Assembly: GCA_016933575.1 (NCBI GenBank) | Contig: JAFGAR010000101.1 | Location: forward strand, 129,296-193,295 | Reading direction: 5' to 3' | Length of the DNA stretch: 64,000 nucleotides | DNA from: Candidatus Thorarchaeota archaeon | Lineage (GTDB): Archaea; Asgardarchaeota; Thorarchaeia; Thorarchaeales; Thorarchaeaceae | In this document: positions 1-31,128 of the stretch, piece after piece | How the letters are laid out: each line of letters starts with the position of its first letter | How positions within the stretch are numbered: position 1 is the first letter of the stretch | Program-made: the position numbers and the translations under genes | The notes under the pieces: model-generated | What the model was told of the DNA's origin: nothing | The model's input: the letters and a program-made list of their open reading frames with translations, nothing else | The model's database searches: none

Positions 1-2
1 CT

Positions 3-3000
3 AATGGTCGTTTCTGGGGTCAGCACACTAATTTTGAAACAAGATGGTCAAGTAATAGACTAGTTATTGATTGGGGCGGCGACACAACTCTCCAAGGCAC
101 TAAGAACAATTGGATTGTTGATAAATGGTATTTCATTGCCATCACTTGGAATCAAGACACCAATTCTCTGGGAATATACTGGGGCGATGAAGAATTACTA
201 CCCATTGAAGACGCATCTTCCTCAATATGGACTGGATCTGTCATCGGTTTACTTTCAGAGAACGATATAATGTGTTCTAGAGGTTCAACCAGTTATCGAG
301 TTGATGGTCACGTAGACGATTTTAGATACTATTCCGTAGAACGAAGTATTGATGATTTGCAGAGTGATTACAAAACACCATTGATTGGCGATGAGCCATA
401 TCTTGAGCATTACTATAATTTTGAGAATAATCTTCTGGATTCTGCTGGTACTTCCAATTTAATGCAGAGCGGGACTACATTCTTCAGTCAGGATGTGGTC
501 TACGAAGTAGGTGGATGGCAAGGGGAGCAGATTGAAGTTGATATTCAAGAATTACACAGTCTTTATGCATTGTATGGCTCTTTTGAAACGGGTCTGCCCG
601 GAACGAATGTGGACTGGAATGGAGATGGAACATACTATGCAAACGGATGGCGAGCTCGTCGAGATGTTATAACTTACCAAGGAAGACAAAGGACATCATA
701 TACTAGTACAGGTTCTAAATATATCACTCTTGAAAATGAAGGCTATGAAGATCCCAGCTCCCCCAATGCTTATCGTCATTATAACAGCACATACATCTAT
801 TGGTACCAGAATATCGACAACTCTGACCAAGCAGAAGAATTCGAATTTAGCATGAGCTATCTCTATCAGAGAGGTCCCATTGGGTCTAATTTCTCTGGTA
901 ATTTCATGTTTAGTTTTGAGATCTTTAATGGTTCCTTACTTCTCTGGAATTGGTCCATTGACCCAACAGAGATCTCACAGAGAGGTTTGTGGTATGTACT
1001 CAATCCAATACCTGTAGAACTTCCTAGTCTCCTTTCATCCTTTCAAGCACGAATAAGTTTGAACGTAAACACAAGCTCGTCATATATTGAAATTCCCGAT
1101 GACGATTCCGATTTGGATGGGGATTCAGCGAATGGTATGTTCATCACTTTTCAGGTTGATGATATTTCCTTAATTTCAGTGAACACTCCCAGTTTTGAAA
1201 GCGTTGAACTAGAAATAGACACCCCTCCTTTAGGTACAATTCCCGTCAATGGATCAACTGGTTCGACTACTATATTACTGAATTACAGCTACTGGGATAA
1301 GGCAGCAATTCCCTTTAGCTTCTCATCAAATTCGAGCATCTCATTCGAGTTCTCTGCACGAGTCAGTATTATGTCCAGATACTCCAACTCAACATTTTCG
1401 CAGAATCTTGAGCATCATGGAATTGCTTATGATATCGAGCTTAATCAGAATGCTTCGCTGTCATTCTACACCTATATGCCATCTTACTCTGGTGTTACTG
1501 ATATTGGCTTCATAGTATCTTTTCCCAAAGATTGGAGTGATCCGCTCGTTGAAGATCCTTTTGGCCACGATGTATCTGACATAATGGAATGGAATTGTGG
1601 ATGTATTGAAGCTCCTCCAGGTAGTGTGGGCTTTGTTGGTTGGTGGAAAATCAGTCTGAATGGACCTAACTATGCAAAGTCATTAGCCACTGAGCAGCAT
1701 ACTTGTACTTCATGGGTGACTTCAGCAGGCTATAGAAGTAATGATCAACTTCGGACTAGAGCAGTAATTGGTAGCAGTACAAGCTATCCAAAAGATGTAA
1801 TCGACGCAGAATTTGTCTGGTATAATCCATCAGGTAACCCTTGGTATTCCTGTATCAGCAGTAGCTCCAATACTTCGACGGTAATAAGTAGTAGCACCAC
1901 TTTCGGTGCAAATAACGCATCTGTGGGCATCTGGTCGATAACATTGTTTTGGAATAATGGTACAGAGATTGGTTTCGGATTAACACAGTTCCAGCTCTTT
2001 CATCGGCTAACAATTTTTCCACAAACTCCAAGTTTTGAAATCGAACCTGGTGAATCATTCACTGCGGCTATTTTTCTTTATGACCATGACAATGGAAATC
2101 CCATTCTGAGTGATGCTACTATTGTTGGTAATTGGTCGACAGAAACTATTCAATTCAACCCCAACTTAGCAAAAGGATGGTGGGAGGCTGATTTCAATTC
2201 ATCAGCAATTGGCACTGGTGACTTTGTCGTTGTGATCTTTGTTACACTAGATTTCTATGAGACTGAAAGCTGCACAATTAATCTTCAGATTCCTCTGGCA
2301 GAATCTCTGGCTATGATTACACTGCGTGCAAGCATCTTAGGTGCAATTTCAGTAGCAGTGTTTTTTGCAGTATTGATGGGCAGTAGAAGATTATATTTGA
2401 CTACGAAGACAAGAAGGCGTCTGGAACTACTTGAGCTTAAAGCTCGACTTGAAGATGCAAAGAACATAATTGGCCTTTTGGTCATTCATCGCTCCATGGG
2501 ACTCTCAATATACTCAAGGATTATCAAGGGTGGATTTGAAGAGTCTATGTTGAGTTCTTTTATTTCCGCACTCTCACAATTTAGAGCTGAATTTTCATGG
2601 GACGAACCAAAACTAACTGCTATCCCAATAACCGAAGTCATCACAGCTGTACTTACTGATACTATGATTTGCGCGTTAATAACGGTAGAAAACGCATCTG
2701 ACAATCTAAAAACTCAACTTGAATCATTTGGGAGAGAGATGGGCTCGTCATATGATGAGGATGATGCTACACTGCAAAAGATGGCTAAGATGTCGAACAT
2801 GAATGAATCAATAGATAGAGTATTCGAAACTCATTTTGATTGCCCATTAATGGATCGTTATATTGGAATAAAGACTGACATTCCAAAGCATCTCATGCTA
2901 CTATCCGACCTTTTTGAAACAGTGGATGTTGATACTGGCCTGTTGCCCGATGCTATGATTAAATCAATAATCGTGCTCGGTCAGAGTGAAAAACGCGCGT

Positions 3001-3086
3001 ATGAACTCGTCTTTGAAGCAATTGACCAAGGATATCTTATAGTAGCTGAGCAAGAGCCTCCATCAACCACGAGCTCTAAGACCTGA
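3..3086 (+). CDS. Single-pass surface protein, 5'-truncated by the window edge: LamG/ConA-like domain, beta-rich/Ig-like ectodomain, TM helix, cytoplasmic longin/roadblock-like domain
   Basis: The frame of ORF 270..3086 is open back to nt 3 (NGRFWGQHTNFETRW...KWYFIAITWNQ...GHVDDFRYY), a LamG-like pattern. Many N-x-S/T sequons. TM ILGAISVAVFFAVLMG followed by a basic stretch, then IIGLLVIHRSMGLSIYSR...MLSSFISALSQFRAE (longin-like). Confidence 0.8.
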   Translation, partial: NGRFWGQHTNFETRWSSNRLVIDWGGDTTLQGTKNNWIVDKWYFIAITWNQDTNSLGIYWGDEELLPIEDASSSIWTGSVIGLLSENDIMCSRGSTSYRVDGHVDDFRYYSVERSIDDLQSDYKTPLIGDEPYLEHYYNFENNLLDSAGTSNLMQSGTTFFSQDVVYEVGGWQGEQIEVDIQELHSLYALYGSFETGLPGTNVDWNGDGTYYANGWRARRDVITYQGRQRTSYTSTGSKYITLENEGYEDPSSPNAYRHYNSTYIYWYQNIDNSDQAEEFEFSMSYLYQRGPIGSNFSGNFMFSFEIFNGSLLLWNWSIDPTEISQRGLWYVLNPIPVELPSLLSSFQARISLNVNTSSSYIEIPDDDSDLDGDSANGMFITFQVDDISLISVNTPSFESVELEIDTPPLGTIPVNGSTGSTTILLNYSYWDKAAIPFSFSSNSSISFEFSARVSIMSRYSNSTFSQNLEHHGIAYDIELNQNASLSFYTYMPSYSGVTDIGFIVSFPKDWSDPLVEDPFGHDVSDIMEWNCGCIEAPPGSVGFVGWWKISLNGPNYAKSLATEQHTCTSWVTSAGYRSNDQLRTRAVIGSSTSYPKDVIDAEFVWYNPSGNPWYSCISSSSNTSTVISSSTTFGANNASVGIWSITLFWNNGTEIGFGLTQFQLFHRLTIFPQTPSFEIEPGESFTAAIFLYDHDNGNPILSDATIVGNWSTETIQFNPNLAKGWWEADFNSSAIGTGDFVVVIFVTLDFYETESCTINLQIPLAESLAMITLRASILGAISVAVFFAVLMGSRRLYLTTKTRRRLELLELKARLEDAKNIIGLLVIHRSMGLSIYSRIIKGGFEESMLSSFISALSQFRAEFSWDEPKLTAIPITEVITAVLTDTMICALITVENASDNLKTQLESFGREMGSSYDEDDATLQKMAKMSNMNESIDRVFETHFDCPLMDRYIGIKTDIPKHLMLLSDLFETVDVDTGLLPDAMIKSIIVLGQSEKRAYELVFEAIDQGYLIVAEQEPPSTTSSKT

Positions 3087-3155: not shown

Positions 3156-4292
3156 TTGGTTGCAGCCTCAATGGAAGACATAGTTATTAGATATTGGAGC
3201 CCCCATGGAAGACAAGAGGAAACAAAGTTTCAAAGCAGTCACTCTAAAATTGATCTGGTCATGCGGGCTGCTCAGAGGGTTGATTTACAGAACATTACGA
3301 ATTGCACCAATTTGGAAGTACTTGATCTCTCCAATAATATGCTTGATGAAATAGACCTCTCTCCATTATCTATGTGTTCAAAACTTGTAGAACTTAGATT
3401 GAAAAATAACCATCTTACACATCTCAATCTCTGGCCTCTAGTTGATTCTACAAGCCTTAAAGAAATTGATATATCTAATAACAGAATTCATGGTCTTGAT
3501 TTAACACCTATCTTTCTAAAATCCCGTGTGCGCATGGATGCATCTGTAGTTGTTTCAGCCGATTACATTCTTCGTTTTCTTTTTGCTAGTGAATCTCTTA
3601 CTAGTTCCTTCCATCTCATTAGACCCGATGGAGCACCATGGACCGCTCCACCTGTGATCATCTGGAATACCTATGTAGACCTTTCAAAAACATTGCTTTG
3701 GCGGATAATCTATCCAAGAATAGAATCAGTACTTGCAATGGTATCCAAAGACAAGTGGTTTGGTGCACAAAGAGGATTGTTGGAGGGGATTGGCATAGGC
3801 GAACTTGCAGGATATGATGGCAATCCTAACAATCTCCTCGATAATGTTGACTCATCTGTTTCTTTTGAAGAAGCCAGACACATGATATTTGATAATGCAG
3901 TAGAACTTCTAGATGAACAGATCGAGAACAATGGTCCTACATTGTTCCTTGATATTGAACATCTGAAACGGACAAGAGCCTCGAAATTGATACCTCATAT
4001 TGTAGAAAGACGAAAACGAGAGATTGAAGAAATTACAATTCAAATGAAGGGTAGTAAGGTGTTTCTGCATCCATTATTACTTACATACTATGGCTATTCC
4101 ATTATGAAAGCCACTGGTTCTGGATTGATAACAGATTCCAATGGTTTCAATATCATCAAAAATGCATTCCGAGAATTGGATATTGAGATTATAACAAAGA
4201 AAGTCGTTTCCGTAAATAGGTCCTATCTGGGAATCGCATCAAAGAGCATGTATAACCATGTTGTAGATTTCTTTGAAGGTCGGTTCGACTAA
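3156..4292 (+). CDS. Leucine-rich repeat protein (N-terminal LRRs plus unknown C-terminal domain)
   Basis: LxxLxLxxNxL repeats (LEVLDLSNNMLDEIDLSPL, LVELRLKNNHL, LKEIDISNNRI). Start may be ATG 3171. Confidence 0.85.
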   Translation: MVAASMEDIVIRYWSPHGRQEETKFQSSHSKIDLVMRAAQRVDLQNITNCTNLEVLDLSNNMLDEIDLSPLSMCSKLVELRLKNNHLTHLNLWPLVDSTSLKEIDISNNRIHGLDLTPIFLKSRVRMDASVVVSADYILRFLFASESLTSSFHLIRPDGAPWTAPPVIIWNTYVDLSKTLLWRIIYPRIESVLAMVSKDKWFGAQRGLLEGIGIGELAGYDGNPNNLLDNVDSSVSFEEARHMIFDNAVELLDEQIENNGPTLFLDIEHLKRTRASKLIPHIVERRKREIEEITIQMKGSKVFLHPLLLTYYGYSIMKATGSGLITDSNGFNIIKNAFRELDIEIITKKVVSVNRSYLGIASKSMYNHVVDFFEGRFD

Positions 4293-4372
4293 TAGGATGA
4301 TAAATTACCTTCTTCGACAGTTTAAATTATAGAGATGTCCGAATACAGAGTTCACTGGAAGTGCTCATATCT

Positions 4373-4969
4373 ATGGCAAACGACAAGAAGATATTCTCAA
4401 CACCTCTTGTAAAAGTCAAGATTAGTAGATTTCGAGCTCCAAATATCTGTCCCGTCTGTGGTGCACCTTCAACGCACACCACAATGATATCAACCAAACC
4501 TACAAACAAGGTATGGTTACGGCCATCGTGGAATCCTGGTTATAGTCCTACCAGTAGAAGGAGATATGGAATCTCTCAACCACAATCAAAGATCTTTCTC
4601 ATCGATGTATGTGATGAGCATTATTTCACAGATGATGCAAATCTCCGTTTTCGAGGATTTACGATGTGTCTCGCAGCACTACTTATCGGTATGTCTGTTT
4701 TTGCACTGATGTTCGCAGGGTATGACTTGTCAGCAGGACATGGAATTCATCCTTTGTCGTACCTTTACATTGTTGTACTGAGTCTCTCCATAATCCTAGG
4801 TTTCTTTGCATTTCGTCCAACTGCTCTTGAATCTGCTTTCAGAATTATTGGTTTTGATTTTGATGTGCAATATGTATGGTTAGAATTGAAGAATCCTAAT
4901 TATCGACATAAATTCATTGAAGAAAATAAAGCTGGTGCTGAACTAGTTACTTGGATTGTAAAAGCTTGA
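4373..4969 (+). CDS. Membrane protein with putative Zn-binding N-terminus (CPVC...CDEH) and 2 TM helices
   Basis: CxxC and CxxH motifs, two hydrophobic helices. ORF track starts at GTG 4361; first ATG is 4373. Confidence 0.7.
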   Translation: MANDKKIFSTPLVKVKISRFRAPNICPVCGAPSTHTTMISTKPTNKVWLRPSWNPGYSPTSRRRYGISQPQSKIFLIDVCDEHYFTDDANLRFRGFTMCLAALLIGMSVFALMFAGYDLSAGHGIHPLSYLYIVVLSLSIILGFFAFRPTALESAFRIIGFDFDVQYVWLELKNPNYRHKFIEENKAGAELVTWIVKA

Positions 4970-9055: not shown

Positions 9056-12000
9056 ATGAGAATAACGAGACTGATGGGTTTGCTTCTTATACTCCTCCCT
9101 CTACTTCTAGGTGTCTTCATCACCCCGCCTGTTTGGAGGGCTGGAACACAAGATTCTGCGGAAAGCAAGACCGTCGAACTCTCAAATGGAGAGAAGATTC
9201 AGATCGCTCCAGATGAGTATATCGAAGAGTATCATCTTTCTGATGCTCCCACACAGATGTCAGGAACTGGAGACTCACTCAGAGCCAATGAGTCTGGAGT
9301 TCGTGTAGACACTTTCACAGATGAACCACTTTACTATAATTCAGCAGGTTCTACAACCACTACAGCTAATCTATCTGTACCGATTGGAGAAGGCTGGGAG
9401 TCGTATGCTGTCTACACTGATGTGACGAGCATTACAGAAAACAGAACATGGGTTCAAAACTCTGGTCTTGATGACTCATCAAGTTGGACATTTCTATCTC
9501 ATGATGAACCTTCAGTCTTTGGTCCGTCTTATACAAACGCTATGACCTCTCAATGGGAAAATAATGGTCATGGCGCTGGAGATGGTTGCGCATATTTCTA
9601 CATGGATGGTTATTACTATGATTTAGGTGGAGGTCTTAGAGGTGACTGGTATGATGTTGGTGATAAAGCCTACATGGTTCAGGATCTTACAATTGATCGT
9701 GGTGATGTTTCTAAGATAGGAATCTCATTGGACTACTGGGGTGATGTTGCTTGGGGTATCATGACAGGTTTCTTCGAGTTGTTCGTTTCCATCGGAGATC
9801 CTGATAATGGCGGAACATATCTTTGGAACATGCCTTTTGATGCTTTCACAGATGATCTCACATGGTACTCAACTGGCTACATTGAAATCGATATCTCTTC
9901 TGTAACACTGCCCAATATCCCACTCTGGGTAGGTCTACGAACGACAGCTTTTGAGTGGTGGCGTCCTGACATCAATCCTGTTGGCCGAATGGACAATATT
10001 GTGGTGTATGTCACAGCTAAAGCTGCTCCATCAGATATCAATTTGCAGATGAATGGAGTAGATGTATCAGATGTCATTCAGGGTTCAAATCCAATTTTTG
10101 GTCTTGGCACAGCTTGGTACGTCCCAGTTGTTCCCTGGACTGAAGGTGCTGCCTATGCTAACTTTTCTTGGACTCCTATTCCTAATCCTCCTGATCCTGA
10201 CTTCAATATCAATATCGCACTAGATGTGGATGTGTATGTGTTTGCACGAAAAGTAAACAGCTTGACTGTAAATGACACAGAACTAATTACATTAGGTGAC
10301 AACTTTGTGGTCTCAAATGCGACTTCTGTTAGCTGGGAAACAAATTACTATCTCACAATACCTGGTGGATATGAAGACCAATTCTTCTTCAATTTATCAA
10401 TCCCGCTGAATCGGGATATCACATTTGTTTCTGAACCTGCTCATCGATATACAAACCTTACAAGTGATTGGTATTTTGGAAATCCTGGTGATGGGGTTGT
10501 TAACATTTCAGTATATGATATGGGACTTTCTGACCCTAACGGTTTCTGGATGATTCGTGGAACTTCACCAAATATGGTTACAAACTTGCAAGTCTGGGAT
10601 GACACTCTAAGTCAGTGGGTCCAAACAAAGACTTTCAGAGCAAACGAAGACACGCGATTTAGAGCAGTCCTACCATCATTCTATGAAGATGATGTAGTGA
10701 CATTTACCATTTATGATTCAAATGGTAACATTTGGGATACAGTAACAGGTACAGTTGATTCATCAGGTTTCGCAGTATCCACCTATGTAAATTTGGATGC
10801 TGTCACCGCTGAGGTTGGATCTTGGGAAGTTCAAGCATATGTGGGAGATAGCATCTCCAGTCCAGATGTCCATAACATTGGATTTTATCGAAGATCTTTC
10901 AGCATAGTCCATAGTACACAATTGAGTATCAAGTATCCTATTGCAAGCCGTATAACATGGAGTATCAATGTGACATATGGTTCAATAGTCTTCCTTCAAT
11001 TACGCGTGAATGATACTGATAATGGAGACCTCCTAGCTGGTGGAATGCTGACTTACACTGGGGGTCTTGGCAGCGGCACTGCAAATGATCTGGGTACAGG
11101 TGAATACAGTATCACATTGAGCACAACTCTACACACAAATGGCGCTTATAGTATGAATCTTGCTTGGTCAAAAGGCTACTATGATTCTCTCATCGATACC
11201 TTTACTGTAAATATCATTTATGAAACAGAATTCCTCTCTCCTGATGCCCCTGGAATTGATGTAGCTAGTGGGAACGATGCAGTCCTTCATGTTCATTTTG
11301 AAGACATGCTAAATCAACCAATTGATGGGGCTTCAATTGTATGTAACTGGTCACAGAGTTATGCAATAACACCTGAAGGCTCTGGAGATTATGTACTTAG
11401 TCTAGACACTTCTGGAATGACTCTCGATCTCTATCCGGTTCTCATAACTATATCAAAGGACTATTATCAGACTCGATCAATTATTCTTAGAGTTGAAGTA
11501 AGAGAATTGCGTGCTTCTGCGATACCATCTTCGAGCTTACTCTCACTTCCAGTTGGCTATACTACTTCATTCACGATAACATATACCGATACAGATCTTC
11601 AAGCTCCAATAACTGGTGCTGCAGGAATTATCAAGTGCAATTGGTCTGATATTCATTCGTCTGGAGATCAAAATTATACAGTGACCGAAACTACACCTGG
11701 AATCTATGAGGTTGTTATCTTCTCGATGGATGACGATGTTCTTGATTCTTACGATGTATTGTTCACAGTTGAGCGCTATGGCGCACAGAATCAATCGTTT
11801 GTTGTGACTGTTGAGTTACGAACCCATTTGACTTCTCTATACCTAGAGAATTCAGTGGAACCTACTGCATATACCGGAAATATCACTGTCAATCTCGTCT
11901 ATTATGATGTAGATGCTGATACGGGAATTGTTAATGGTACGACAAGTGGTGGTTATGTTGAGTTAATTATAACGAGTCCTACCCTTGTTTCTCCGACCTT

Positions 12001-15000
12001 CTATGTGTATTCAATATCGCCGGAAGGACTCTATGTAATCCATATTCCAGCCAATCAATGGGGAAATATTGGAACTAAGACTCTTAACATTGAAGTCAAC
12101 TGGATAGGAGTGAACCTGAAATATTCCAATCTAACTCTCTCAACCCCTGCCACGATTACCGATGCTCCAACGGATATCTTCATTGGAGAGAGCCCTGTCG
12201 TAACAGCTTTTGGTGAGAATATCACATTCACAATAATATACTATGACATTAGTGCACTTACAGGCGTTGTTAATGGAACAGGTCCGTTCTCAGGAAATGT
12301 TCACATCTATATTGATGTCTTAACAGCTGGGGAAACAATTACACAAGCTGATATGACTATCACTGAAATTGATTTTGTAACAAATCCCGGTGAATATAGA
12401 ATTACATTCAATTCCACACTGCTTAGTGGACTAGGTACAGTACAACTAAGACTCTGGTTCAATTGGACTGATGCGGCACTACCTTACTATCAGAATCAAG
12501 TGATAGTGATTGCTGTCATCACTTCACATCGCTTAACAACTGTTGATCGGAATCCACTCCCTCTGACCCCATTTGATGAAATGGTAAATCTCACATTCAC
12601 ATATCGTGATTCGCTCAGTGGTTTAGCGATTCTAAACAGTTCTCAACTCTCGGTCAGTGTACCAGGTTACCCGTCTTTCAACATCTACTATCTTGGTGAT
12701 ATCTCAGGTATCTTTGTTGTAGAAATTAATACCTCTGTATTTATTGTCGGTAGCCATTCATTCTACCTAGACATTGTCTGGGTCGGTGCCCCTTATTATC
12801 AAAACAGGACAAATGTGCAGATTTTCATTACAGTGAGAGAGCGCTACACTGATTTGACCCATGGTACCTATTCGCCTATCCAAATTGGCAATACACTCAA
12901 TTTGAACTTCACTTACCGCGACCTAGATGATTACACATCTATCGGAATGGATGGCGCAACTCTTTCCTTGGATGGATGGTTAACTGGTAGTTATTCTGTT
13001 GAAAATATTGGAAATGGCATATACACCCTACATCTTGACACGACCGCATTCAGTAATACAGGAACATTCTTAGTAAATGTCACAATTATCTACGGTGGAT
13101 CACGTAATTGCGCTGATGCATCAGATGTATTCTATCTAACACTTACTGTCCGACGTACACAGCTCACAAGTGACCTACCTGAATTGGCTCCCTTCCTAAC
13201 AAATGCTACTATCGTGGTTTATTATACTGATGATACGACTGATGCTGGAATTTCCGGTGCCGCTGCGAATGCATCTTGTTCAGCAGCCATTGATCCACTG
13301 CAATATGGTGTAAATTATTGGGTCATAGATAATATGGATGGTAGCTATACTATTATTATTGATACTGCAGCGTTAGGCAATTTTGGACCCTATACAATCG
13401 CAATAACAGTGACATGGAACTCCGGTTGGCCTTTCTATCAACAGCGTGTTCGCAATGTTAACATCGAAGTTTCTCGCCGACCAGTTTCACTTACCGTTTC
13501 AAAGTCTCCATTGAATACTCCATTCCTATCTAATGCTACCTTTGAAATCACTGTGACAGATCAACTAGATAGTTTTGGAATCACCTTGGTAAAGAATAAT
13601 CTAATTCTTACTCATGGTATCGGAGGTACACTCATCACAAATAATCAATACTCCATAATAGGATCCAATGGTGTCTATACGATTTCTATCAATTCTCAGA
13701 TACTCACTAGCATTCTAGAAAATGAACATCCTATATTCATTCTATTTGTTTGGGGTGATGCAATCCCATATTATTCGAATGCATCTTCTACCACTGAAGT
13801 ATCTATAATTACAAGATACACTCAAGCTGTTGTTTTGCAGACTCCACCAGGTTATTACTACTTCAACATGAGTGCTCTATTGCGATATAATGACTACTTG
13901 ACGGGTACAGGAATTATAGATGCAACTGTCACAATATCATGCTTGAACACAACTAGTTTCGATTATTGGTTCATAGATAATAGTGATGGAACTTATACTG
14001 TTCTTATCGATACAAACACTCTATCTGGATTGGGGCGTTACTATTTCCGTGCTAATTTTACATATTTTGGAACTCCATACTATAGGAATGTCACTAATGT
14101 TCAATTCAATCTTGTAGTTAATCCAGTTTCTACAACTCTAAGCTTTACATTACCTCAAGGAGTTACCTATTACCTTGGAGATATGGTCTATGCCAACATC
14201 TCTTACTTCTCTATTGAGTTTGGAACTGGGATTGAAAGCGCAACAATCAGTACTGATTGGGACACACTCTATGGTACTAGTAGCACCATCAGCGTTCTAG
14301 CGCCTGGAATTTATCAAATAGCTATAAACACATCTGGTTTGAATGCTCAGCAGTACCAGTTCACTGTGAATGCAAGTAAGTACCTTCACCTAAGCAAATC
14401 CATTCAAGCAGAAATCCTAATAGCTGCAATTCCAGTCGAGATTGAACTTGTGTTTACACCTCAGAATCCAATGTGGGGTGATTCAGTTCAGTTCCAAGCT
14501 AATATCACAGATGCAAGAACGGGTTTCCCAGTAATTGGAGCTTATGTTAATTTCACTCTGGAATTTACGACATTAGTCATGTCTTCTGTTGCGGATGGTC
14601 TTTACAATTGTACATTAGATACATCAACATTGACATCTGGTGAATTCAATATCAGAATACAATCCACCTTACTCAACTACGAGACAAGACAGAAGGATTT
14701 CCAGATACGGATTGAGAAAGTAGCGTCTAAGATTCTTGCTTCGATTGACCCTCAATCTGCGGTCGATGGTCAGATTGTAACTCTCGAGGTTGATTATCTA
14801 ATATATTCCTCAAGTCTGTCTATTTCCACAGGTACTGTGACCTTCTCCTGGATTGGAGGTTCTGGTTCAATAAGTTGGTCCATTATCGATGGCAAATATG
14901 TTGGCACTTTTATCGTTACTGGAGCAGATGTTGGTAGCTACCAGATTCTTGTGCAAGCCTCATCTCCAAACTATAAGAGTGTGAGCTATCTTGTGACTAT

Positions 15001-16885
15001 AGAGATTACCGAGATTCAGACGGAGCTTGTTCCTATTTCTGAATCTATTGTTTCAGTGAACTACAGGGACATTGCAATAATTACTGTGTACCTCAATAAC
15101 ACTGATCTTAATCAACCAGTGACTGGAGCGTCCATGAGTTTCGGAGTTGGAACAATTGTTGGTGATCTAATTGAGTTACCAACTCCTGGTTACTATAATG
15201 CCTTGGTAAATACAAGTGAATTAAGTGTGCAAGAATGGACTGTGTCAATATCCAGTGACAAACTCGGATATACTCCAGCTTCAATACAATTCACACTTGA
15301 TGTACAAGAGATTGAAACTGAGATTGTCATATTGACCTCCGGAACAGTATCCGGGTATTATGGACAAATCGTCACTTTCTACTTCCTCTTCAACGATACT
15401 CATGCCAATCTCTCTATCCCTGGAGCAATCACTAACTATACTCTTGAAACTCTGAGGGGATCTCTTGTTGATCATGGCAATGGAACATATAGTCTGACTC
15501 TAAATACAACAGTTGTGGTTGCAGGTACTGTGCCTCATGACATCACAGTTTCTTTCAGAAAAGACAACTATGAATATTCATCTGGTCTTGTAAAATTGCT
15601 TGTCCTTCCAATTCCAACATCTATCATAGGTCCTGTTGAAGCAACATTTCCAGTGTATGATAACTATTCAATGCTATTCAGCTTCAGAGATACTTTGAAT
15701 GATGAGTGGATTACTGACGGAACTGCAACTGTAGTATGGGAATTTGGTACTGCATTATTGACAAATCTCAATAATGGATCTTATATGTTCGGGCCAGCTG
15801 AGGCTAATTTAACCAATTCTCTCCAAGATCGTTTGAATCCATATAGAGTCAGAATATCAATCTCAAGGACTAATTATTCTAGAACAGACATTGAAGTCTT
15901 TCTTACGATACGCGAAATCAGCACCCAAGTTATTCATATAGATCCTATAACACCAATCTATGTAGGAAGTCTATTTTACGTAAATGTAACATTCTACGAT
16001 ACTGATCATAATCTTGTGATATTGAATCCAGTCATCACTTTTACTTCAGACAGTGCAATCGATGATGGTCTCGCCAGAGAAACCAGCCTCGATATTGATT
16101 GGGGCAATGGAACCTATTCTATAGCGTTCAGGGCTCCAAATCTTGCATTCTACACACTGGAAATAGCTTTCACCAAGACTGACTATGTACTCGGTTCTAT
16201 TAGCCTTGACATTTATGCTAAACTGAGTCCTGAACAAGAGGCTTTGGTCAGTACTTTCCAATATAGTACAATTGGAATTCTGGCAATTGCTGCTCTGGCT
16301 GCACTCTATTTCAGAGTACTATCAGTGCCAAGGCTCCTTAGAATCTTACGTCGAATGGTTTCAAGCTTAGGCAGAGGTGTAATACCAAAACCAGCCAATG
16401 TTCCTATTAGACGTCAAATGATTCTATCAATGATGAATGAGGACCTTGCATCAATTTCTCTTGTGAAAACTATGGACGACATCTCCATATCTACGGTTGA
16501 TGTTGCGGCGATGGATGTTGAGAGTCTATTAGATGAACTAGCTTTTGTAGTTGGTCTTACTGAGAGTGACGTAGATACACTCAGAAGAGACCTGGATCAG
16601 ATGCGCCCCAGTGAGCGGGCTGGGTTCATCAATGAAGTTCTGAAGCAAGAGAGGGCTCGTCGAGCCAAAGAACTGGCTGAAGCTGATCTTGCGACCAAAG
16701 AGGGCGTTCCAAGCGAAGCCGTTGAAGAGCGGTTAAGCGAAGATGAACTACTGCATCTAAAGGAGCGTTTGATGAAGATGGGTATCGAGGAAACTGAAGC
16801 TGACCTGATGGTTGAGCAAGCTAAGAATTTGACAAAAGCAGAGATAGATGCTCTGCTTGATGAGATAGGAGGGATGGAAGAATGA
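9056..16885 (+). CDS. Giant (2609 aa) single-pass surface glycoprotein/adhesin-like protein with tandem Ig-like repeats and helical cytoplasmic tail
   Basis: GGAG RBS, signal peptide, ~100-aa beta-rich repeats (YxD...GIxGA...GxYxIxIxT), many sequons, TM IGILAIAALAALYF, ~190-aa charged tail. Confidence 0.85.
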   Translation: MRITRLMGLLLILLPLLLGVFITPPVWRAGTQDSAESKTVELSNGEKIQIAPDEYIEEYHLSDAPTQMSGTGDSLRANESGVRVDTFTDEPLYYNSAGSTTTTANLSVPIGEGWESYAVYTDVTSITENRTWVQNSGLDDSSSWTFLSHDEPSVFGPSYTNAMTSQWENNGHGAGDGCAYFYMDGYYYDLGGGLRGDWYDVGDKAYMVQDLTIDRGDVSKIGISLDYWGDVAWGIMTGFFELFVSIGDPDNGGTYLWNMPFDAFTDDLTWYSTGYIEIDISSVTLPNIPLWVGLRTTAFEWWRPDINPVGRMDNIVVYVTAKAAPSDINLQMNGVDVSDVIQGSNPIFGLGTAWYVPVVPWTEGAAYANFSWTPIPNPPDPDFNINIALDVDVYVFARKVNSLTVNDTELITLGDNFVVSNATSVSWETNYYLTIPGGYEDQFFFNLSIPLNRDITFVSEPAHRYTNLTSDWYFGNPGDGVVNISVYDMGLSDPNGFWMIRGTSPNMVTNLQVWDDTLSQWVQTKTFRANEDTRFRAVLPSFYEDDVVTFTIYDSNGNIWDTVTGTVDSSGFAVSTYVNLDAVTAEVGSWEVQAYVGDSISSPDVHNIGFYRRSFSIVHSTQLSIKYPIASRITWSINVTYGSIVFLQLRVNDTDNGDLLAGGMLTYTGGLGSGTANDLGTGEYSITLSTTLHTNGAYSMNLAWSKGYYDSLIDTFTVNIIYETEFLSPDAPGIDVASGNDAVLHVHFEDMLNQPIDGASIVCNWSQSYAITPEGSGDYVLSLDTSGMTLDLYPVLITISKDYYQTRSIILRVEVRELRASAIPSSSLLSLPVGYTTSFTITYTDTDLQAPITGAAGIIKCNWSDIHSSGDQNYTVTETTPGIYEVVIFSMDDDVLDSYDVLFTVERYGAQNQSFVVTVELRTHLTSLYLENSVEPTAYTGNITVNLVYYDVDADTGIVNGTTSGGYVELIITSPTLVSPTFYVYSISPEGLYVIHIPANQWGNIGTKTLNIEVNWIGVNLKYSNLTLSTPATITDAPTDIFIGESPVVTAFGENITFTIIYYDISALTGVVNGTGPFSGNVHIYIDVLTAGETITQADMTITEIDFVTNPGEYRITFNSTLLSGLGTVQLRLWFNWTDAALPYYQNQVIVIAVITSHRLTTVDRNPLPLTPFDEMVNLTFTYRDSLSGLAILNSSQLSVSVPGYPSFNIYYLGDISGIFVVEINTSVFIVGSHSFYLDIVWVGAPYYQNRTNVQIFITVRERYTDLTHGTYSPIQIGNTLNLNFTYRDLDDYTSIGMDGATLSLDGWLTGSYSVENIGNGIYTLHLDTTAFSNTGTFLVNVTIIYGGSRNCADASDVFYLTLTVRRTQLTSDLPELAPFLTNATIVVYYTDDTTDAGISGAAANASCSAAIDPLQYGVNYWVIDNMDGSYTIIIDTAALGNFGPYTIAITVTWNSGWPFYQQRVRNVNIEVSRRPVSLTVSKSPLNTPFLSNATFEITVTDQLDSFGITLVKNNLILTHGIGGTLITNNQYSIIGSNGVYTISINSQILTSILENEHPIFILFVWGDAIPYYSNASSTTEVSIITRYTQAVVLQTPPGYYYFNMSALLRYNDYLTGTGIIDATVTISCLNTTSFDYWFIDNSDGTYTVLIDTNTLSGLGRYYFRANFTYFGTPYYRNVTNVQFNLVVNPVSTTLSFTLPQGVTYYLGDMVYANISYFSIEFGTGIESATISTDWDTLYGTSSTISVLAPGIYQIAINTSGLNAQQYQFTVNASKYLHLSKSIQAEILIAAIPVEIELVFTPQNPMWGDSVQFQANITDARTGFPVIGAYVNFTLEFTTLVMSSVADGLYNCTLDTSTLTSGEFNIRIQSTLLNYETRQKDFQIRIEKVASKILASIDPQSAVDGQIVTLEVDYLIYSSSLSISTGTVTFSWIGGSGSISWSIIDGKYVGTFIVTGADVGSYQILVQASSPNYKSVSYLVTIEITEIQTELVPISESIVSVNYRDIAIITVYLNNTDLNQPVTGASMSFGVGTIVGDLIELPTPGYYNALVNTSELSVQEWTVSISSDKLGYTPASIQFTLDVQEIETEIVILTSGTVSGYYGQIVTFYFLFNDTHANLSIPGAITNYTLETLRGSLVDHGNGTYSLTLNTTVVVAGTVPHDITVSFRKDNYEYSSGLVKLLVLPIPTSIIGPVEATFPVYDNYSMLFSFRDTLNDEWITDGTATVVWEFGTALLTNLNNGSYMFGPAEANLTNSLQDRLNPYRVRISISRTNYSRTDIEVFLTIREISTQVIHIDPITPIYVGSLFYVNVTFYDTDHNLVILNPVITFTSDSAIDDGLARETSLDIDWGNGTYSIAFRAPNLAFYTLEIAFTKTDYVLGSISLDIYAKLSPEQEALVSTFQYSTIGILAIAALAALYFRVLSVPRLLRILRRMVSSLGRGVIPKPANVPIRRQMILSMMNEDLASISLVKTMDDISISTVDVAAMDVESLLDELAFVVGLTESDVDTLRRDLDQMRPSERAGFINEVLKQERARRAKELAEADLATKEGVPSEAVEERLSEDELLHLKERLMKMGIEETEADLMVEQAKNLTKAEIDALLDEIGGMEE

Positions 16886-19800
16886 AAACTACACACAGAC
16901 TCATCCCCATTATGTTCGTTATTGTAATGATGGTAGCACCGGTATTTCTCACCCATAATCCATCAATGGGAATGACTACAGGCCAAGATACAACCAGTGA
17001 TTTAGGAACTCGTGAAGTTGATATTGGAAATGGTGAGATGATTGAACTTGCTCCTAACGAGATTCTCCACACGTATGTACTCACCGAACAAGGGTGGGTA
17101 GAATGGAGTAGTACCAGTGATCCACTTATTGGTTCTGAATATGGAAACAGCATTAATATTTTCAATAATCGACAGATGAAATACATACCCGGTAGTGCCA
17201 CAACCTCAGTTCAAACAGGTATCTCAATTGGCACGGGTTGGGAAGCTTATGAAGCACGAGTGGCAATTAGTAGTCTTACTGAGAATAGAACATGGATTAC
17301 TAATCCTGGATTTGAAGGAGGCTACACAGGTTGGACTCGAGTGGCTACTTCTAATGCAGGATACAGTACTGTTAGCGCAAGTTGGATCGATGATGGTCAT
17401 GGAACAGGTAACGATTGTGTTGAAGTCGATATAAACTCAGATAGCACAAGTGAGCCATTCTATTATGACCAAGGTGATGATGCATGGTATCAGCAGGTTG
17501 CAACTGTAAATCGTGGTACTGTGGTTTGGGCTGCTCTTAGAATGAATTTCTGGGCCGATACTGTGGACGACACTCACTATGGTATGACCGGTTCATTCAG
17601 GTTATATGCAAATATCGAAGGAACTGATATCTGGCGAAGAGTCTTTTCCGATATTGGTGCTGAAGAAACTTGGTATGACACTGGTCTACTCACGGTAAAT
17701 CCATCAGTCTTTGGGCTACCCGGCGATACGAGCATAACCACAAGAATAGGTATGTTGTCACTAGCTACTGTTGGATATGCACCAAATATCCATCCTAAAG
17801 CCAGATTCGACAACATTGTACTCTATATGAAGACTCTAGTCAATCCTAGTGAAATCAATCTTCAGATGAATGGACTTAGTATCAGCAATAGTGGAACAAG
17901 AGGCATTTGTTCAATTACTCAAACACCTGGTACTCCTTGGACAACATCTCCAGTTACACTCACATTCACGTGGACTCCAGTACCAACAACGCCAAATCCC
18001 AATAGCGAGATAAGAATTGACTTTAACATTAATGTGAATATGTTCGCTAGGCATTACGATCTTGATAGTCTCTATGAAATTAGTCCAACATCTTTCGGAG
18101 AACGATTTACTATCCAAAATGGCACTAATGCTGAATTCACATCTTACTTTAGAGCCAATATTCCCACAGGATATGCAAATCGGTACTTCTTCAATGAGAC
18201 AATTCCAATAGATCGTGACGTTTACTTTGTAGCTCAACCATTAGCACCAACCACCAATCTTACCTCTGGATGGAATGGAGGGGACCCTGGCGATGGCTTC
18301 CTAAATGTATCAACATACTTGATTACAACCGAACCCGGAAGGTATGGATATTGGAGAATCTTGAGTAGGTCTCCAAATATGATATCAGATGTGCAGCTTT
18401 GGGATCCAAACTCAAGTATGTGGACTCGCGATGCTGATTTACGTGCTGGTGATATCAGCCGAGTATTGGTGAATGTTGGTTCACAATATGCTGGCTCTTT
18501 AGTAAACATCACTCTATACAAACCGGATGGTTCTGTTTGGCAAACATTCAGTACTACTGTGAACTCGACTGGATATGCAACAACGAGTAGCTTCACACTC
18601 TCAGGCGCAACAGCACCTGCAGGTAGTTGGATGGTACAAGCTACGACTAGTAATGTAGGTGCAGGAGGAGAATGGACATCTGTGGGTCTATTCAAGAGAC
18701 CATTTACAATAACTCATGAATCCACTATCAATCTACAATATCCTACAGACGCCATTGGGACTATGATAACCAATGTTACCTATGGTGATCTACTCCTGAT
18801 TATTCTGGAAGTAGAAGATATTGACAGCTCTGTATTGGTACCGGGTGGTACCCTTACTCTGGATTGGTCTTTTGGAATTGATACTTTTGATGATAATGGA
18901 AATGGTCAGTATACTAAAGTCATAGACACATCTGAACTACCCGGAAAAGGTCAATATACAATGGATTTGGATTGGGTGCACCCAAGTTTTGATCCATCCA
19001 ACACTGCTCTCACAATCAACATTAATTATGCAGCGACTCTGACATCGCCTGACTATCCAGGAATTTCAGGTCCTGTGGGTGATGACCAATCATTCACTAC
19101 TCGATTTGCTAATGTGAATGGCACCGGGATCACCACTGCCAATCTATGGTGTAATTGGTCGAATCCGTATACTGTTGTTCCTCTTGGTTTGGGTAATTAT
19201 GAATTCCAACTAGACATGACTGGTATACCAATTGGAGAATATCCAATTGAGGTACACGCAACAGGACCATTTGTTGAACCTCAATCCATGTTGATGTATG
19301 TTGAAGCAAGAGAAATCTATAACTCAATCTCTTACACCTCAAGCCAACTCTCTATACCCTTGGGTGAAGCAGCATCATTCGTCTTGACTTGGACTGATAC
19401 TGATCACAATGTCCTCATCTCTGGCTCAGCTTCATCTATATCATGCAACTGGACCCCATTCCACTCATCTGGAGACACAAATTATACTGTTGTTGAGATA
19501 TCTCCTGGTAAATATAACATTACCATCTTTACCAAGAATACAGATCCATTGACAGGAACAGATCTCATCACTGTTAGATTCAACGTGTTCAAGACGAATT
19601 ACAGAAGTCACATATTTGACATCGGTGTTGCGATACGAAAGAGGAACACGCTCTTTGTTCTCGATGCTCCGATAAGTCAGACTCCATTTGGAAGCACTAT
19701 CACTGTTTTGGTATTCTACCAAGATACTGATTTACGTGTAGGTATTGGTAATGCTACTAATGAAGTAAAAATCACAATAACATCAACAGAGATTGGAACA

Positions 19801-22800
19801 GTAGCATTCACATGTACGCCATCCTCTCTTGGGCTAGGCCACTACAATATTTCAATTGATAGTGGACAATGGGGAAGCATTGGTTGGAAGGACCTTAGTA
19901 TATTCATAGAGTGGACAGGAGTAGTCGATAAATTCTATAGTCAGACCATCAATACTTCAGCACGGATAACTGGTACTGATACTGACCTCTATCTTGAGAT
20001 AGCCCCAACCGCAACGTACTATCTTGACACATTTACATTCACAGCAGTCTACTATGATACAGTTGGGCTGCAAAGGATTAGTAATTTAACAAACAATGTC
20101 TTCATACTTCTCACTGCCCTAGATACTGGACATTCAGTAACTCAGAGTGATTTCACCATTGTTGAATCTGGGACAGTACCTGGTACTTACATATTCACTT
20201 TGGATAGCACTCTGTTTCCAAGTACTGATACATTCCGGTTCCAGCTTGATTTCATGTGGAAGAAGGGTGCGATCCCTAGGTATGAAAATGCAACAATGGT
20301 TGTATCATTGATTGTACTAGATCGCCCCACATATATCGACTACTCTCCCATCTCATCTACACCATACGGAGAGGATGCAGAACTTCGGTTTAGCTTTGTT
20401 GATACACTCACATCGACAAAGATTGATGATTCTGCTCAATTAATTGTGTCTTTGAACGACCTTGGAGTATCATTCTCATATTCGTTTAACGCATTAACAC
20501 ATGAATTCACACTTCTGATTGACACTGGCTCAATTGGTAGTATTGGTGTCCATATCATCCATCTGAACTTGACATGGAGTGGAAGTCCATTCTATGCATC
20601 AGTCACCAATAAACCAATTACCTTGTCAGTGATACTTCGACCTACGCAGCTTTCCCACCTGTCCTTTGCTCCAAGTCAGTGGGGAAATAACATCACCATT
20701 CAATTCGTTTATACTGATATTGTCGTTGGATCAACGGCTGGAATGTCTGGAACATTGACTCTGAATATTGCAGTTGACAAATATTCTGTTGTATATGGTC
20801 CAGAAGGGCATTTCTTTGTAACTATCAACACAACAGCGTTTGCATCTGATGGACTGTATTCAGTCACAGCTACTGTGGTTCATACAAATCCGAACTATCA
20901 GACTGCAATTGAGACCTTTGACATATCAGTTCTAAAACGTTCTACACAACTTGGTTATGATAGCCCTGATCCAGCTTCCTATGGGTCCAATGTGAGCTTG
21001 CATATCATCTACACTGATGATAGTACTGGTAGAGGAGTAGTTGGTGCAACAATTGCCGTCACAGGAAATGGCACCTATAGCTTGGTGTTGAACACTAATT
21101 ATTGGATTACCTACACAGGAGATGGGCGCTATCTTATAGAAGTCAATACAACAGCACTTGGAGTTCCTGGTGTCTACTTGTTGGAAATCGATGTGAGCTT
21201 CAGCGGAGAACCATTCTATCTTCCAGGTTCTCAGGATGTCATTGCCAGAGTTGTAGAGAGAACAACTCAGATTCTAATCACACAAACACCTGGTGAAGTA
21301 CCATTCCAAGAGAATGTTGTATTCCGATTCAAATATACTGACTTTCTATTAGGTACAAAAATCAGTATTGACCAGTCAGATATTACCCTTACTCATGGTG
21401 TATCTCACACTGTGATTACTTCTGGTCAATACACTCTCAATGAATATGCAACATATTATGAGATTATCTTTAGTTCTCTGATCATCAATCCAAGTGCACT
21501 TGAAACCGGGCATCCGATTCAGATTACAATTGATAAAGGCTCAGGAGAACCTTACTATGCTCCAAGAAGTACTTCAACATCAGTGACGATAATACAAAGA
21601 TCCACTCAAATTCTGTTACCACTCGTCGAAGATACACCATATTACGACAACATAACAATTCAATTGAGTTATATTGATTATCTAACTGAAACAGGAATTG
21701 ACGATGCATTACTTGTCATCTCAAGTGACAACTGGACTGTACCTGAATATACTCTAATACGTGAAGGAAATGGTGTTTATACAATCCTCATAAATAGCAG
21801 TTTATTTGGTGACATCGGTAATGTATACTTTGATATCACACTGAGTAAATCTGGTTCCCCATTCTATACAAGTAGGACAAGATATGATGTCCCAGCGACT
21901 ATTACAACCATCCAAACTTCTATCATTGCTGAAGCTCCAGCAGCTGGTTCTACCGCAGTTGGAGCTCCCATTGAAGTTACCATAACCCTTCGTGATTTCG
22001 ACCACGATAAGCTTCTTGAAGGTGCAATTATCTCCACGAATTGGACACAACTATTCGGAACAGGTTATACTATTGATGAATTAGGATCTGGAGTATACAC
22101 AATTACCTTAATCACTGAAGGCCTACTAGCTCAAAAGTTCACCTTTCAAGTCTGGGCGGAGAAATCTTACTATGCTACAGCGATAGCGACGGTGTCTGTT
22201 CAACCTGGAGCAGCAACTGTTGAGATATATCTGGAGAAATCAACCTATTATTCCGATTGGGGTGAAATGGTCAATATCACGTTCCAAGTGAGAGAACCAT
22301 ATTACAATACTCCAGTAACAGGAATGACTGCTACACTCCTTTGGAATGGAGTACTATATGGTTTCACAGAAGGTACGAATGGATACTATACTTTGTTACT
22401 TGATTCATCTGAGAATAATTATGGTATCTATAATCCTCGGATTACAGTTACAAAATTATACTATCAGCAGAAACAAAGAACCTTCACATTAGTCGTTTCA
22501 AAGGCCACTGGTCAGATTATACCTGAATCTTCACTCTATGAGGTCGTCGCAAACACTTCTGTGAATATTCAGATTTATCTCAACGACACCGTTTCTGCAT
22601 TACCAGTAACTACTGCTACTGTCAACATAGAATTCAATGGAACACTTTACTCTCTAACACATATTGGTGGTGGATTCTTTAGTACTAACTTACCTGTAAC
22701 CAATTTTGCTATTGGCCAGTATCCTCTGATAGTTCGCGCTAATGCAGTGAATCATGTATTCCTTGAAATCATCATAGATGTCAATATTGTGCCAATCTAC

Positions 22801-29761: not shown

Positions 29762-30604
29762 CTAAAGACTCAGTAACTCAGTAGATAATTCAGACCCAAG
29801 TCGAACAATTTTAGGTCTAACGCGAGGACCATAAGTAGCACTAAAAATACTAATCAATCGATCATTGAAGAATAGCCTGTATCCTTCGGGAAATACTTCA
29901 TGAGCGCGAAACATCTTCTTAGCGTCAATATCTTTCATGAATCTATTGAAAGCCTCAGCACCATAGGTACGAGCTCTATCACTTCTCATGTTGGGTCTAA
30001 ATTTGAAATCATTGTCTTGGGGGTCATTCCAGACTATCTGAAAGATTACATCATCAGGAAAATTCGGATTTCTTCTGTTTCTACTCTGTATCTCTTCAAT
30101 AGTAGAGATTCCTTCTGGAATACCACCATGACATGCAAAGATAGACTTCTCATGATAGCATGCAATTGGAAGTATTTCAAACACTCTCGAATAGTGTTTG
30201 AATAAATCAAAAGAATAGACACGAGTGACCTCATTATAGAAACCATAACGAGCAGCAACATCATCGGATTCATGGTTACCCCTGAGCATTGTGACTCTTG
30301 ATGGAGAAACCAACAACAATGACATGACAAGATTGAAAGTTTCAATTTGATTAGGTCCTCGATCAGCATAGTCGCCAAGGAAGACAAAATGATGCTTCTC
30401 GTATTTTTCCATGTATCTTTTTACTGAGAGTGCGCAATCAAGTTCGCCATGAAGGTCACCTACAAATATCACATTCTTGTCAGGGATATCCACAACATTT
30501 GGACTCTCTCGATACTGATCTTGAACTAATCCAGACAAGTGCCATATTTCATCTCTCGAAAGATTGGTCTTTCCATTGAGTACAGCACTTACGGTTTCGT
30601 CCAT
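29762..30604 (-). CDS. PPP-family serine/threonine protein phosphatase
   Basis: GDLHG, GDYADRG, LRGNHE, HGG, WNDP, RAHE, SIFSATY. Confidence 0.92.
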   Translation of the reverse strand: MDETVSAVLNGKTNLSRDEIWHLSGLVQDQYRESPNVVDIPDKNVIFVGDLHGELDCALSVKRYMEKYEKHHFVFLGDYADRGPNQIETFNLVMSLLLVSPSRVTMLRGNHESDDVAARYGFYNEVTRVYSFDLFKHYSRVFEILPIACYHEKSIFACHGGIPEGISTIEEIQSRNRRNPNFPDDVIFQIVWNDPQDNDFKFRPNMRSDRARTYGAEAFNRFMKDIDAKKMFRAHEVFPEGYRLFFNDRLISIFSATYGPRVRPKIVRLGSELSTELLSL

Positions 30605-30614
30605 ATCATTACAC

Positions 30615-31118
30615 CTATTCCCAACCTAGAACCTTGACAATGATATCTAATGCCTCTTCGGGTGTTTTTGCTGAATGGACAATATCGTTTCTTCTCTCAT
30701 CGATTTGTGTTCCTGCAAGTTTTGCGGCCCATCCTCCTGAGGATTCCATTGAAACTACAAGTTTGTCCGAGAACCATGCAATAGCGATTTCACTCAAAGT
30801 ACCAGCTGAACCATCAATGGCAATAACCGCATCTCCAGCCTTTGCAACCAAGAAATTTCGCGCATATCCGAGACCGGTTGGGATTGCTATGTCGATATAC
30901 TGATTTGCATGTTCTTTGAAATCCGACGGGAGAATTCCTATGGTCAATCCATTGAATTTCTTGGCTCCTCGGGATGCTGCTTCCATGACGCCACCAAGTC
31001 CCCCAGATGCAAGGGCAATTCCCCTCTTCGCTATTTCTTCGCCTAGTTTCTCAGCAAGGGTAAGAATCTCTTCATTAGAATCTGAACCACCAATTACAGA
31101 TATTATTCTAAGAGGCAT
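30615..31118 (-). CDS. LOG family / TIGR00725 Rossmann-fold nucleotide-binding protein
   Basis: GGLGGVMEAASRGA, GILP, TGLGYARN, GSAGTLSEI. Confidence 0.88.
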   Translation of the reverse strand: MPLRIISVIGGSDSNEEILTLAEKLGEEIAKRGIALASGGLGGVMEAASRGAKKFNGLTIGILPSDFKEHANQYIDIAIPTGLGYARNFLVAKAGDAVIAIDGSAGTLSEIAIAWFSDKLVVSMESSGGWAAKLAGTQIDERRNDIVHSAKTPEEALDIIVKVLGWE

Positions 31119-31128
31119 AATCAGGCTC

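Follow-up and report, generated by a model that had tools for sequence, protein, structure and literature searches.

Gene organization and membrane topology

A large surface-protein gene lies at the start of a 64,000-nucleotide stretch of a Candidatus Thorarchaeota genome (contig JAFGAR010000101.1, G000:C78:129296-193295), hereafter the window. It encodes a single-pass membrane protein in which a large ectodomain is joined to a cytoplasmic tail that is predicted to contain a longin domain. The open reading frame (ORF) at positions 3-3086 of the plus strand is real, but it is truncated by the window start and has no start codon inside the window. The complete gene, at L002:9589-13086 on the contig, encodes 1165 amino acids (aa) and starts 414 bases upstream of the beginning of the window ORF, with a TTG codon placed 7 nt after a GGAGG motif. 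In order, the full protein consists of a signal peptide, a LamG-like domain, a β-rich head, an MG2/Ig-like core, one Ig-like repeat, a transmembrane helix and the tail. The signal-peptide-like N-terminus lies within the first 138 residues, which are encoded upstream of the window (L002:9589-10002, plus strand). All features described below for the receptor gene are also on the plus strand.

A single transmembrane helix (residues 908-931; window 2310-2381), recognized by hydropathy and the positive-inside pattern, separates an ectodomain of ~880 aa from a 236-aa cytoplasmic tail. A run of basic residues follows directly behind the helix. The ectodomain is rich in S, T and N, has 16 N-x-S/T sequons and contains 4.1% K+R, whereas K+R rises to 11.2% in the 234 residues beyond the helix. 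Hydropathy, composition, sequons and the positive-inside pattern together establish a predicted type-I topology with a large ectodomain and a cytoplasmic tail.

The ectodomain and its giant paralogues

The LamG/ConA-like domain is cut at the window start (window 1-353; residues ~120-255 of the full protein). It matches Pfam Laminin_G_3 (PF13385) with an E value of 6.2e-5 over profile positions 14-148 of 151, though at 23.6 bits the score is below the 27.6-bit cut-off. The match extends over most of the model, as for members of the LamG/ConA-like lectin-glucanase superfamily. PF13385 is also precomputed on about a dozen orthologues, and one of the NCBI names is LamG-like jellyroll protein. The N-terminal LamG-like domain claimed in the first-pass annotation, which was made from the letters of the window, is thus borne out.

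The β-rich head domain (window 396-1148; residues 270-520) is conserved across the tail family, with phmmer matches in 53 family representatives. It has no match among Pfam or PDB sequences. A jackhmmer search did not detect it in the giant proteins described below and yielded only the three tail-family genes in the same genome.

The ectodomain core (window 1146-2018; residues 520-810), which is weakly MG2/Ig-like, includes a block that is common to two giant paralogues encoded further downstream, giant A (window 9056-16885) and giant B (window 16882-24624). The block was delineated by BLASTP, phmmer and jackhmmer. BLASTP aligns it with giant A at E 3e-10 (26% identity over 167 aa), across the very strings quoted in the first-pass annotation, and with giant B at E 3e-8 over 263 aa. 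The corresponding phmmer E values are 2e-9 and 3e-5. An iterated profile widens the core common to the giants to ~400 aa, at E 1e-103 to 1e-106. Weak MG2 matches fall in the shared core block. The earlier claim of a shared block, which a non-significant alignment was to have overturned, therefore stands on significant alignments to both giants.

Between the shared block and the transmembrane helix is a single Ig-like stalk repeat (window 2001-2303; residues 805-905), in agreement with the "about one Ig repeat" noted earlier. Homologues of this repeat are the first stalk repeat in 70 family members and residues 728-815 of giant A (E 9e-4). The longer relatives show filamin-, Big- and invasin-type matches in their stalks.

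The giants (window 9056-24624, ~2600 aa each) resemble the receptor in having the ~400-aa ectodomain core, an Ig-like stalk and a type-I arrangement with one transmembrane helix. They differ in having another head domain, many more stalk repeats and a helical tail of ~185 aa. No cross-match was found between the tail of the receptor and that of the giants, which confirms that the tails are different, as had been proposed. The helical tail of the giants (window 16264-16885 and 24007-24624) forms a family of its own, often with several members per genome. Each of the 12 genomes sampled from the genus encodes it, as does one other genome of the order, on ORFs of 2200-6200 aa; the same query did not detect it in seven other families.

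A predicted longin domain in the tail

The tail was modeled with AlphaFold2 from an alignment of 57 tails, giving a mean predicted local distance difference test score (pLDDT) of 87.3 and a predicted template modeling score (pTM) of 0.82. It begins with a long basic juxtamembrane helix (window 2376-2465; tail residues 1-30), defined by the model, its charge and its conservation. The modeled helix spans residues 2-30 at pLDDT 90-96 and has a median net charge of +6; R24 is near-invariant and D27 invariant. The helix is followed by the predicted longin-fold domain (window 2466-2852; tail 31-159), a small acidic winged-helix-like domain (window 2853-3056; tail 160-227) and a short disordered C-terminus with the stop codon (window 3057-3086; pLDDT < 50 over tail 228-236).

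In the model, tail residues 31-159 have the order β-β-α-β-β-β-α-α. The elements are strands 31-38 and 44-49, helix 56-72, strands 82-84, 89-93 and 97-103, and helices 109-126, 130-136 and 142-154. These form a five-stranded antiparallel sheet flanked by a single helix on one side and a pair of helices on the opposite side, which is the longin topology. The model is similar to solved longin domains over the whole domain and well above background. With VIA-align, tail residues 29-159 match Sec22b with a Z score of 12.4 (124 aa, root-mean-square deviation 3.0 Å), AP-3 sigma with 11.8, a COPI subunit with 11.7 and the TRAPP longins with 10.8-11.4; all 50 of the matches listed are longin proteins.

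A wide structure search independent of Foldseek gave synbindin at Z 12.1, and nearly all of the 50 matches listed were longin or roadblock proteins. The longins, at Z 8-12 over 110-130 aa, rank above the roadblock chains, which have Z 6.9-8.7 over ~90-102 residues and whose alignments begin at residue 25-31, past the N-terminal helix. Among the matches, at Z 8.8, is a longin domain solved from a Lokiarchaeota Roadblock-Longin protein. Foldseek against the PDB likewise returned only longin and roadblock proteins as top matches; the best E value was 4.8e-4 and the target-normalized TM-score for Sec22b was 0.67. The structural comparisons of the model thus argue that tail 31-159 adopts a predicted longin fold. 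A longin-like tail had been suggested at first reading, with the lack of such a fold as the refuting outcome, and because both structure searches place the tail among longins that suggestion holds.

The domain is absent from Pfam. An hmmscan of the tail with E values allowed up to 10, and one of all 57 aligned tails, gave nothing above chance; the curated longin models (Longin, Fuz_longin_1, Sybindin, Clat_adaptor_s, SRX) do not match the receptor or the tails directly, and the Robl_LC7 model (PF03259) has no match in the tails. Searches of PDB sequences by phmmer and with a profile also gave nothing.

Soluble relatives and the C-terminal subdomain

A bridge to a curated sequence family is provided by soluble proteins. 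The tail profile weakly matches seven soluble proteins of the same genome, one of which reaches Pfam Fuz_longin_1 (26.8 bits; cut-off 26.1). In a profile-profile comparison by hhalign, the tails match these soluble paralogues with 94.9% probability and E 4.3e-8 over the five strands and the first helix. Fuz_longin_1 is the only curated sequence family reached, and it is reached indirectly, via the soluble paralogues. Several of these carry a winged helix-turn-helix (wHTH) domain above the Pfam cut-offs (HTH_47, 28.9 bits; TrmB, 28.4 bits). This genome thus uses the longin-winged-helix combination repeatedly in soluble proteins, and the receptor tail looks like a membrane-anchored version of it.

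Two observations were made on the soluble paralogues themselves. A tandem pair of 302 and 430 aa (L054:1-2258; G000:C156:93831-96088), each with an N-terminal Fuz_longin_1-type longin followed by a wHTH (HTH_47, TrmB), is the nearest to the receptor tail among its named relatives and a possible heterodimer. For two of the seven paralogues a small-GTPase ORF is found less than 3 kb away (G000:C101:25261-28855 and G000:C140:39145-43223); with so few cases this proximity is not significant, and it is the sole contextual hint of a GTPase for this longin type.

Tail residues 160-227, when folded alone, gave a model with pLDDT 83.6 and the secondary structure β-α-α-α-β. Its structure matches are exclusively winged-helix proteins, though at low Z scores of 5.0-5.3 (SAMD1, MecI, RPA32C, MCM), and Foldseek with this segment alone found nothing significant (best E 1.3). 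The modeled segment is thus weakly winged-helix-like. It is acidic, with a median net charge of -3 overall and -2 in the putative recognition helix, and is net positive in only 12 of the 57 members. Such an acidic domain argues against DNA binding. A conservon-like DUF742 assignment of the domain was rejected, its basis being a single chance-level match (E 0.028) in a soluble paralogue.

Size and distribution of the family

A phmmer search of 1.84 billion representatives with the tail matched 124 clusters, with E <= 1e-10 for 115 of these. The proteins reach 2342 aa, and the tail almost always forms their final ~230 aa directly behind a transmembrane helix. Searching with the ectodomain core gave 85 proteins, all named hypothetical protein and almost all from Thorarchaeota. 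The tail is present in 69 of the 76 new core homologues and the other seven sequences end inside the ectodomain; none of the 76 carries the tail of the giants. These searches establish the predicted longin tail as an obligate partner of the ectodomain core. The first-pass picture of a member that "swaps in" a different tail is not supported, since all complete close core homologues carry the same one. By sequence comparison at least two tail classes are found on a distantly shared core, the putative longin class being the widespread one.

The orthologous group of the receptor is tight, with lengths of ~1150-1170 aa and a LamG domain, whereas other subfamilies lack LamG and have longer stalks. 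Among the closest relatives the tail is 51-58% identical and the ectodomain core 44-51%, and several tail residues are invariant. Strong full-length matches are limited to the window's own taxonomic family, where 82 of 85 genomes have them, and one genome of another; tail copies in the former number 2-7 per genome and are often in tandem. Of 400 genomes from the phylum, 353 have a match to the profile at E <= 1e-5, but at the weak end these matches may come from soluble longin proteins. When 12 loci of remote versions were inspected, in five genomes from four other families, the domain lay directly behind a transmembrane helix of a large ORF in 10.

The receptor had been called a "third family member" alongside the two giants. 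That count is too low: the ectodomain-core superfamily has six members in this genome, and this type of tail is present on three or four. The three clear tail copies are the receptor and two tandem genes on contig C138. On contig C45, a 1511-aa protein has a tail that is similar in pattern but divergent, with a match to the tail profile at only E 0.044. This protein (L060; G000:C45:37734-42266, minus strand) belongs to the ectodomain-core superfamily; its tail has a β-β-α pattern, a wHTH-like end and a long acidic extension, and Pfam finds nothing in it.

Both C138 paralogues are interrupted. The first (L003:5092-8675; G000:C138:43038-46672) consists of two overlapping ORFs of 331 and 870 aa in different frames, a split that is either a frameshift or an assembly error. 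The second has a single in-frame TAG (L003:10358-10360; G000:C138:48358-48360) inside the conserved ectodomain block (NYAKSIK-stop-QIFDVSW), and could be a pseudogene, a sequencing error or a case of a read-through codon. Single in-frame stops also occur in a few relatives from other genomes.

Genomic context

Two co-oriented genes follow the receptor gene on the plus strand, with gaps of less than 100 nt. The first (window 3171-4292) has a conserved start and encodes a cytoplasmic leucine-rich repeat (LRR) protein of 373 aa, with matches to Pfam LRR_4 and LRR_8; its C-terminal half has no usable Atlas match. The second (window 4361-4969) encodes a 202-aa protein with a weak rubredoxin-like match. 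The LRR gene is directly downstream in 17 further loci with the closest tail relatives, and the gene for the 202-aa protein is present in 10 related loci. The LRR protein is a possible partner of the receptor. Its adjacency is suggestive and not decisive, because flanking metabolic genes are syntenic too (a pyridoxal phosphate-dependent enzyme, pyruvate phosphate dikinase and an ADP-forming acyl-CoA synthetase-like gene).

Small GTPases are abundant in the genome, where 39 ORFs match an iterated small-GTPase profile, about 30 of them strongly. The two GTPase candidates named in the first-pass annotation are distant: a Ras-family gene at window 50164 is ~47 kb from the receptor gene, and a weak Roc-like gene at 31129 is ~28 kb from it.

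Two further neighbors were also noted. At window 29762-32268 (minus strand) a SLOG cluster-4 protein (E 1.2e-44) is encoded between a calcineurin-like phosphoesterase and the weak Roc-like P-loop protein, which has 379 aa. In addition, 5.4 kb upstream of the window (L002:2508-4577), there is a 689-aa protein ending in an AHSA1/SRPBCC domain (Pfam E 1.7e-11, residues 548-674).

Proposed function

Solved longin domains are interaction modules, mostly with small GTPases, as in SRX-SRbeta, TRAPP-Rab1, Mon1-Ccz1-Rab7 and FLCN/NPRL2-Rag, and they usually dimerize as paralogues. Because solved longins act in this way, the preferred reading, held with middling confidence, is of a receptor- or adhesin-like surface protein whose tail would serve as a platform for protein-protein interactions on the cytoplasmic side of the membrane. 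The longin-winged-helix module would be held ~30 helical residues beneath the membrane and would pair with a second longin or roadblock domain, either of a paralogue or of another copy of itself. Tandem paralogues are frequent, which fits the way Mon1-Ccz1, Fuzzy-Inturned and NPRL2-NPRL3 form heterodimers. The paired tail would then recruit a cytoplasmic partner, linking binding at the surface to a cytoplasmic machine. By analogy with known longins a small GTPase is the single most likely class of partner, though this step is put forward tentatively. The tail would then act in a guanine nucleotide exchange factor (GEF)-like manner or as a scaffold platform, and not as an arginine-finger GTPase-activating protein (GAP).

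Several points weigh against this reading. The longin fold is a prediction and not a solved structure, and direct comparison of the 57 tails with the Pfam longin and roadblock models gave no match. Beyond the Thorarchaeota family the longin core has no conserved basic residue: R70 is R in 51 of the 57 tails, but G or A in remote relatives. The lack of a conserved basic residue disfavors an arginine-finger GAP and leaves the GEF-like or scaffold role. No partner has been found. In 439 kb of sequence flanking 40 family loci there are no small-GTPase genes, against ~3.8 expected from genome density, the 40 loci not being independent of one another. In Asgard archaea, operons seldom combine a small GTPase with its regulators (PMC10933270). 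For the GTPase control suggested at first reading, the GTPase-free flanks are therefore an absence of support and not counter-evidence, since the loci are non-independent and the GTPases of these archaea are reported not to cluster with their regulators. Finally, variable Ig-like stalks would also fit a purely structural surface protein.

A broader proposal is rather unlikely. In it the family would comprise phylum-wide Asgard outside-in receptors, in which paired longin tails form a platform like that of Mon1-Ccz1 or Fuzzy-Inturned and switch on a small GTPase upon ligand binding. If true, it would be a prokaryotic forerunner of receptor-coupled GTPase signaling and of longin-based Rab activation at membranes.

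The most serious competitor, plausible though less probable than the interaction platform, is a structural surface protein or adhesin in which the longin-winged-helix tail is an anchor or sorting handle without any part in signaling or GTPase control. The tail would then serve to fasten the protein to a scaffold in the cytoplasm or to flag it for insertion or turnover. The chief difference among members is how many Ig-like stalk repeats they have (1100-2300 aa), as in adhesins and S-layer-type proteins, and the paralogous giants bear a different, helical tail; the flanks without GTPase genes also fit. The longin domains of VAMP7 and Sec22b serve sorting through the binding of coat adaptors. 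Archaeal surface anchors, on the other hand, normally have few cytoplasmic residues. In the closest relatives the tail is moreover at least as conserved as the core, and its conservation together with the invariant residues indicates more constraint than a passive anchor needs.

A membrane-tethered transcription regulator is very unlikely. The winged helix would bind DNA, either in a ToxR-like manner or after proteolytic release, and the longin domain would sense or dimerize. The joining of the same longin type to a wHTH above Pfam cut-offs in the soluble paralogues speaks for it, and Atlas neighbors include HTH_47 and TrmB clusters. The winged-helix-like domain of the tails, however, is acidic, including its putative recognition helix, no HTH model scores above chance in the 57 tails, and the structural matches are weak and mixed with protein-binding winged-helix domains (RPA32C, MCM, DEP).

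An assembly or gene-calling chimera of a surface protein with an unrelated cytoplasmic gene, which might be suspected in a metagenome-assembled genome (MAG) with 6.9% estimated contamination and two interrupted C138 paralogues, was excluded by the same uninterrupted architecture in >100 independent assemblies and has a negligible chance of being correct.

Significance

Among the chief eukaryote-like traits of Asgard archaea are their longin domains, roadblock domains and small GTPases, all of them well documented. The present family sets a longin domain that Pfam does not recognize, as predicted here, directly under the membrane on the tails of large surface proteins. If the tails recruit GTPases or other switches, they offer a testable entry into signaling or membrane organization in these archaeal relatives of eukaryotes. 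Should they serve purely as anchors, the family is still a large uncharacterized class of Asgard surface proteins.

Longin homologues have been listed for Loki and Odin but not for Thor (Tran et al., PMC10933270). Liu et al. (10.1101/2020.10.19.343400) already report NPRL2-like longins in Thor, and the family therefore adds to, rather than founds, the Thor longin inventory. The literature searched, which extended to Roadblock-Longin proteins but was incomplete in coverage, did not reveal any earlier account of a type-I surface protein that carries a cytoplasmic longin domain at its C-terminus.

Comparison with known longin and roadblock systems

The eukaryotic longins (Sec22b, VAMP7 and Ykt6; the AP sigma subunits and mu N-termini; COPI zeta and delta; TRAPPC1/2/4; SRalpha SRX) share with the tail the predicted fold, over ~115-125 residues at Z 10-12.4, and the placement of a cytoplasmic domain at a membrane. 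Sequence identity is ~10% and the tail does not belong to their Pfam families. Unlike them, it follows the transmembrane helix of a type-I protein with a ~880-aa ectodomain, has a winged-helix-like domain behind it and lacks a SNARE motif or a coat-subunit context. In longin-SNAREs the order is longin, a SNARE motif of ~60 aa and a C-terminal anchor; here it is ectodomain, transmembrane helix, 30-aa helix and longin, and no heptad region of SNARE length is present in the tail.

The tri-longin RabGEFs (Fuzzy-Inturned, Mon1-Ccz1, HPS1-HPS4) match the tail at Z 9.3-10.1 for Fuzzy, 9.0 for BLOC-3 and 7.9-8.1 for Mon1-Ccz1, and the tandem paralogous tail genes recall their heterodimeric design, in which the first longin domains of two paralogues pair and catalyze nucleotide exchange on a Rab. 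Their subunits have three longin domains, whereas the tail has one, followed by the ~68-aa winged-helix-like domain and the end of the protein, and there is no adjacent Rab-like gene.

NPRL2-like longin proteins occur in most Thor MAGs, and longins fused to signal-transduction modules are also described (Liu et al., 10.1101/2020.10.19.343400). Like the tail, the NPRL2-like Asgard proteins combine a longin domain with a small C-terminal domain; unlike the tail, they are not mentioned in a membrane-anchored form (10.1101/2020.10.19.343400). Pfam NPR2 (PF06218) has no match in the genome of the window, but control genomes likewise have none. Chains of the GATOR1 and SEA complexes match the tail at Z 8.0-8.8, over the longin part only.

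The Streptomyces conservon consists of a membrane sensor, a Roadblock protein, a DUF742 protein and a Ras-like GTPase, as separate proteins encoded in a GTPase-containing operon. In common with Roadblock/LC7-MglB and conservon systems, the receptor, as predicted, joins a putative membrane sensor to a domain of the roadblock superfamily and a small HTH-like domain. It differs in that its parts are fused, no GTPase is nearby and roadblock structures match the tail less well than longins do (Z 7-8.7). By this analogy the conservon is the closest prokaryotic counterpart of how the receptor might work.

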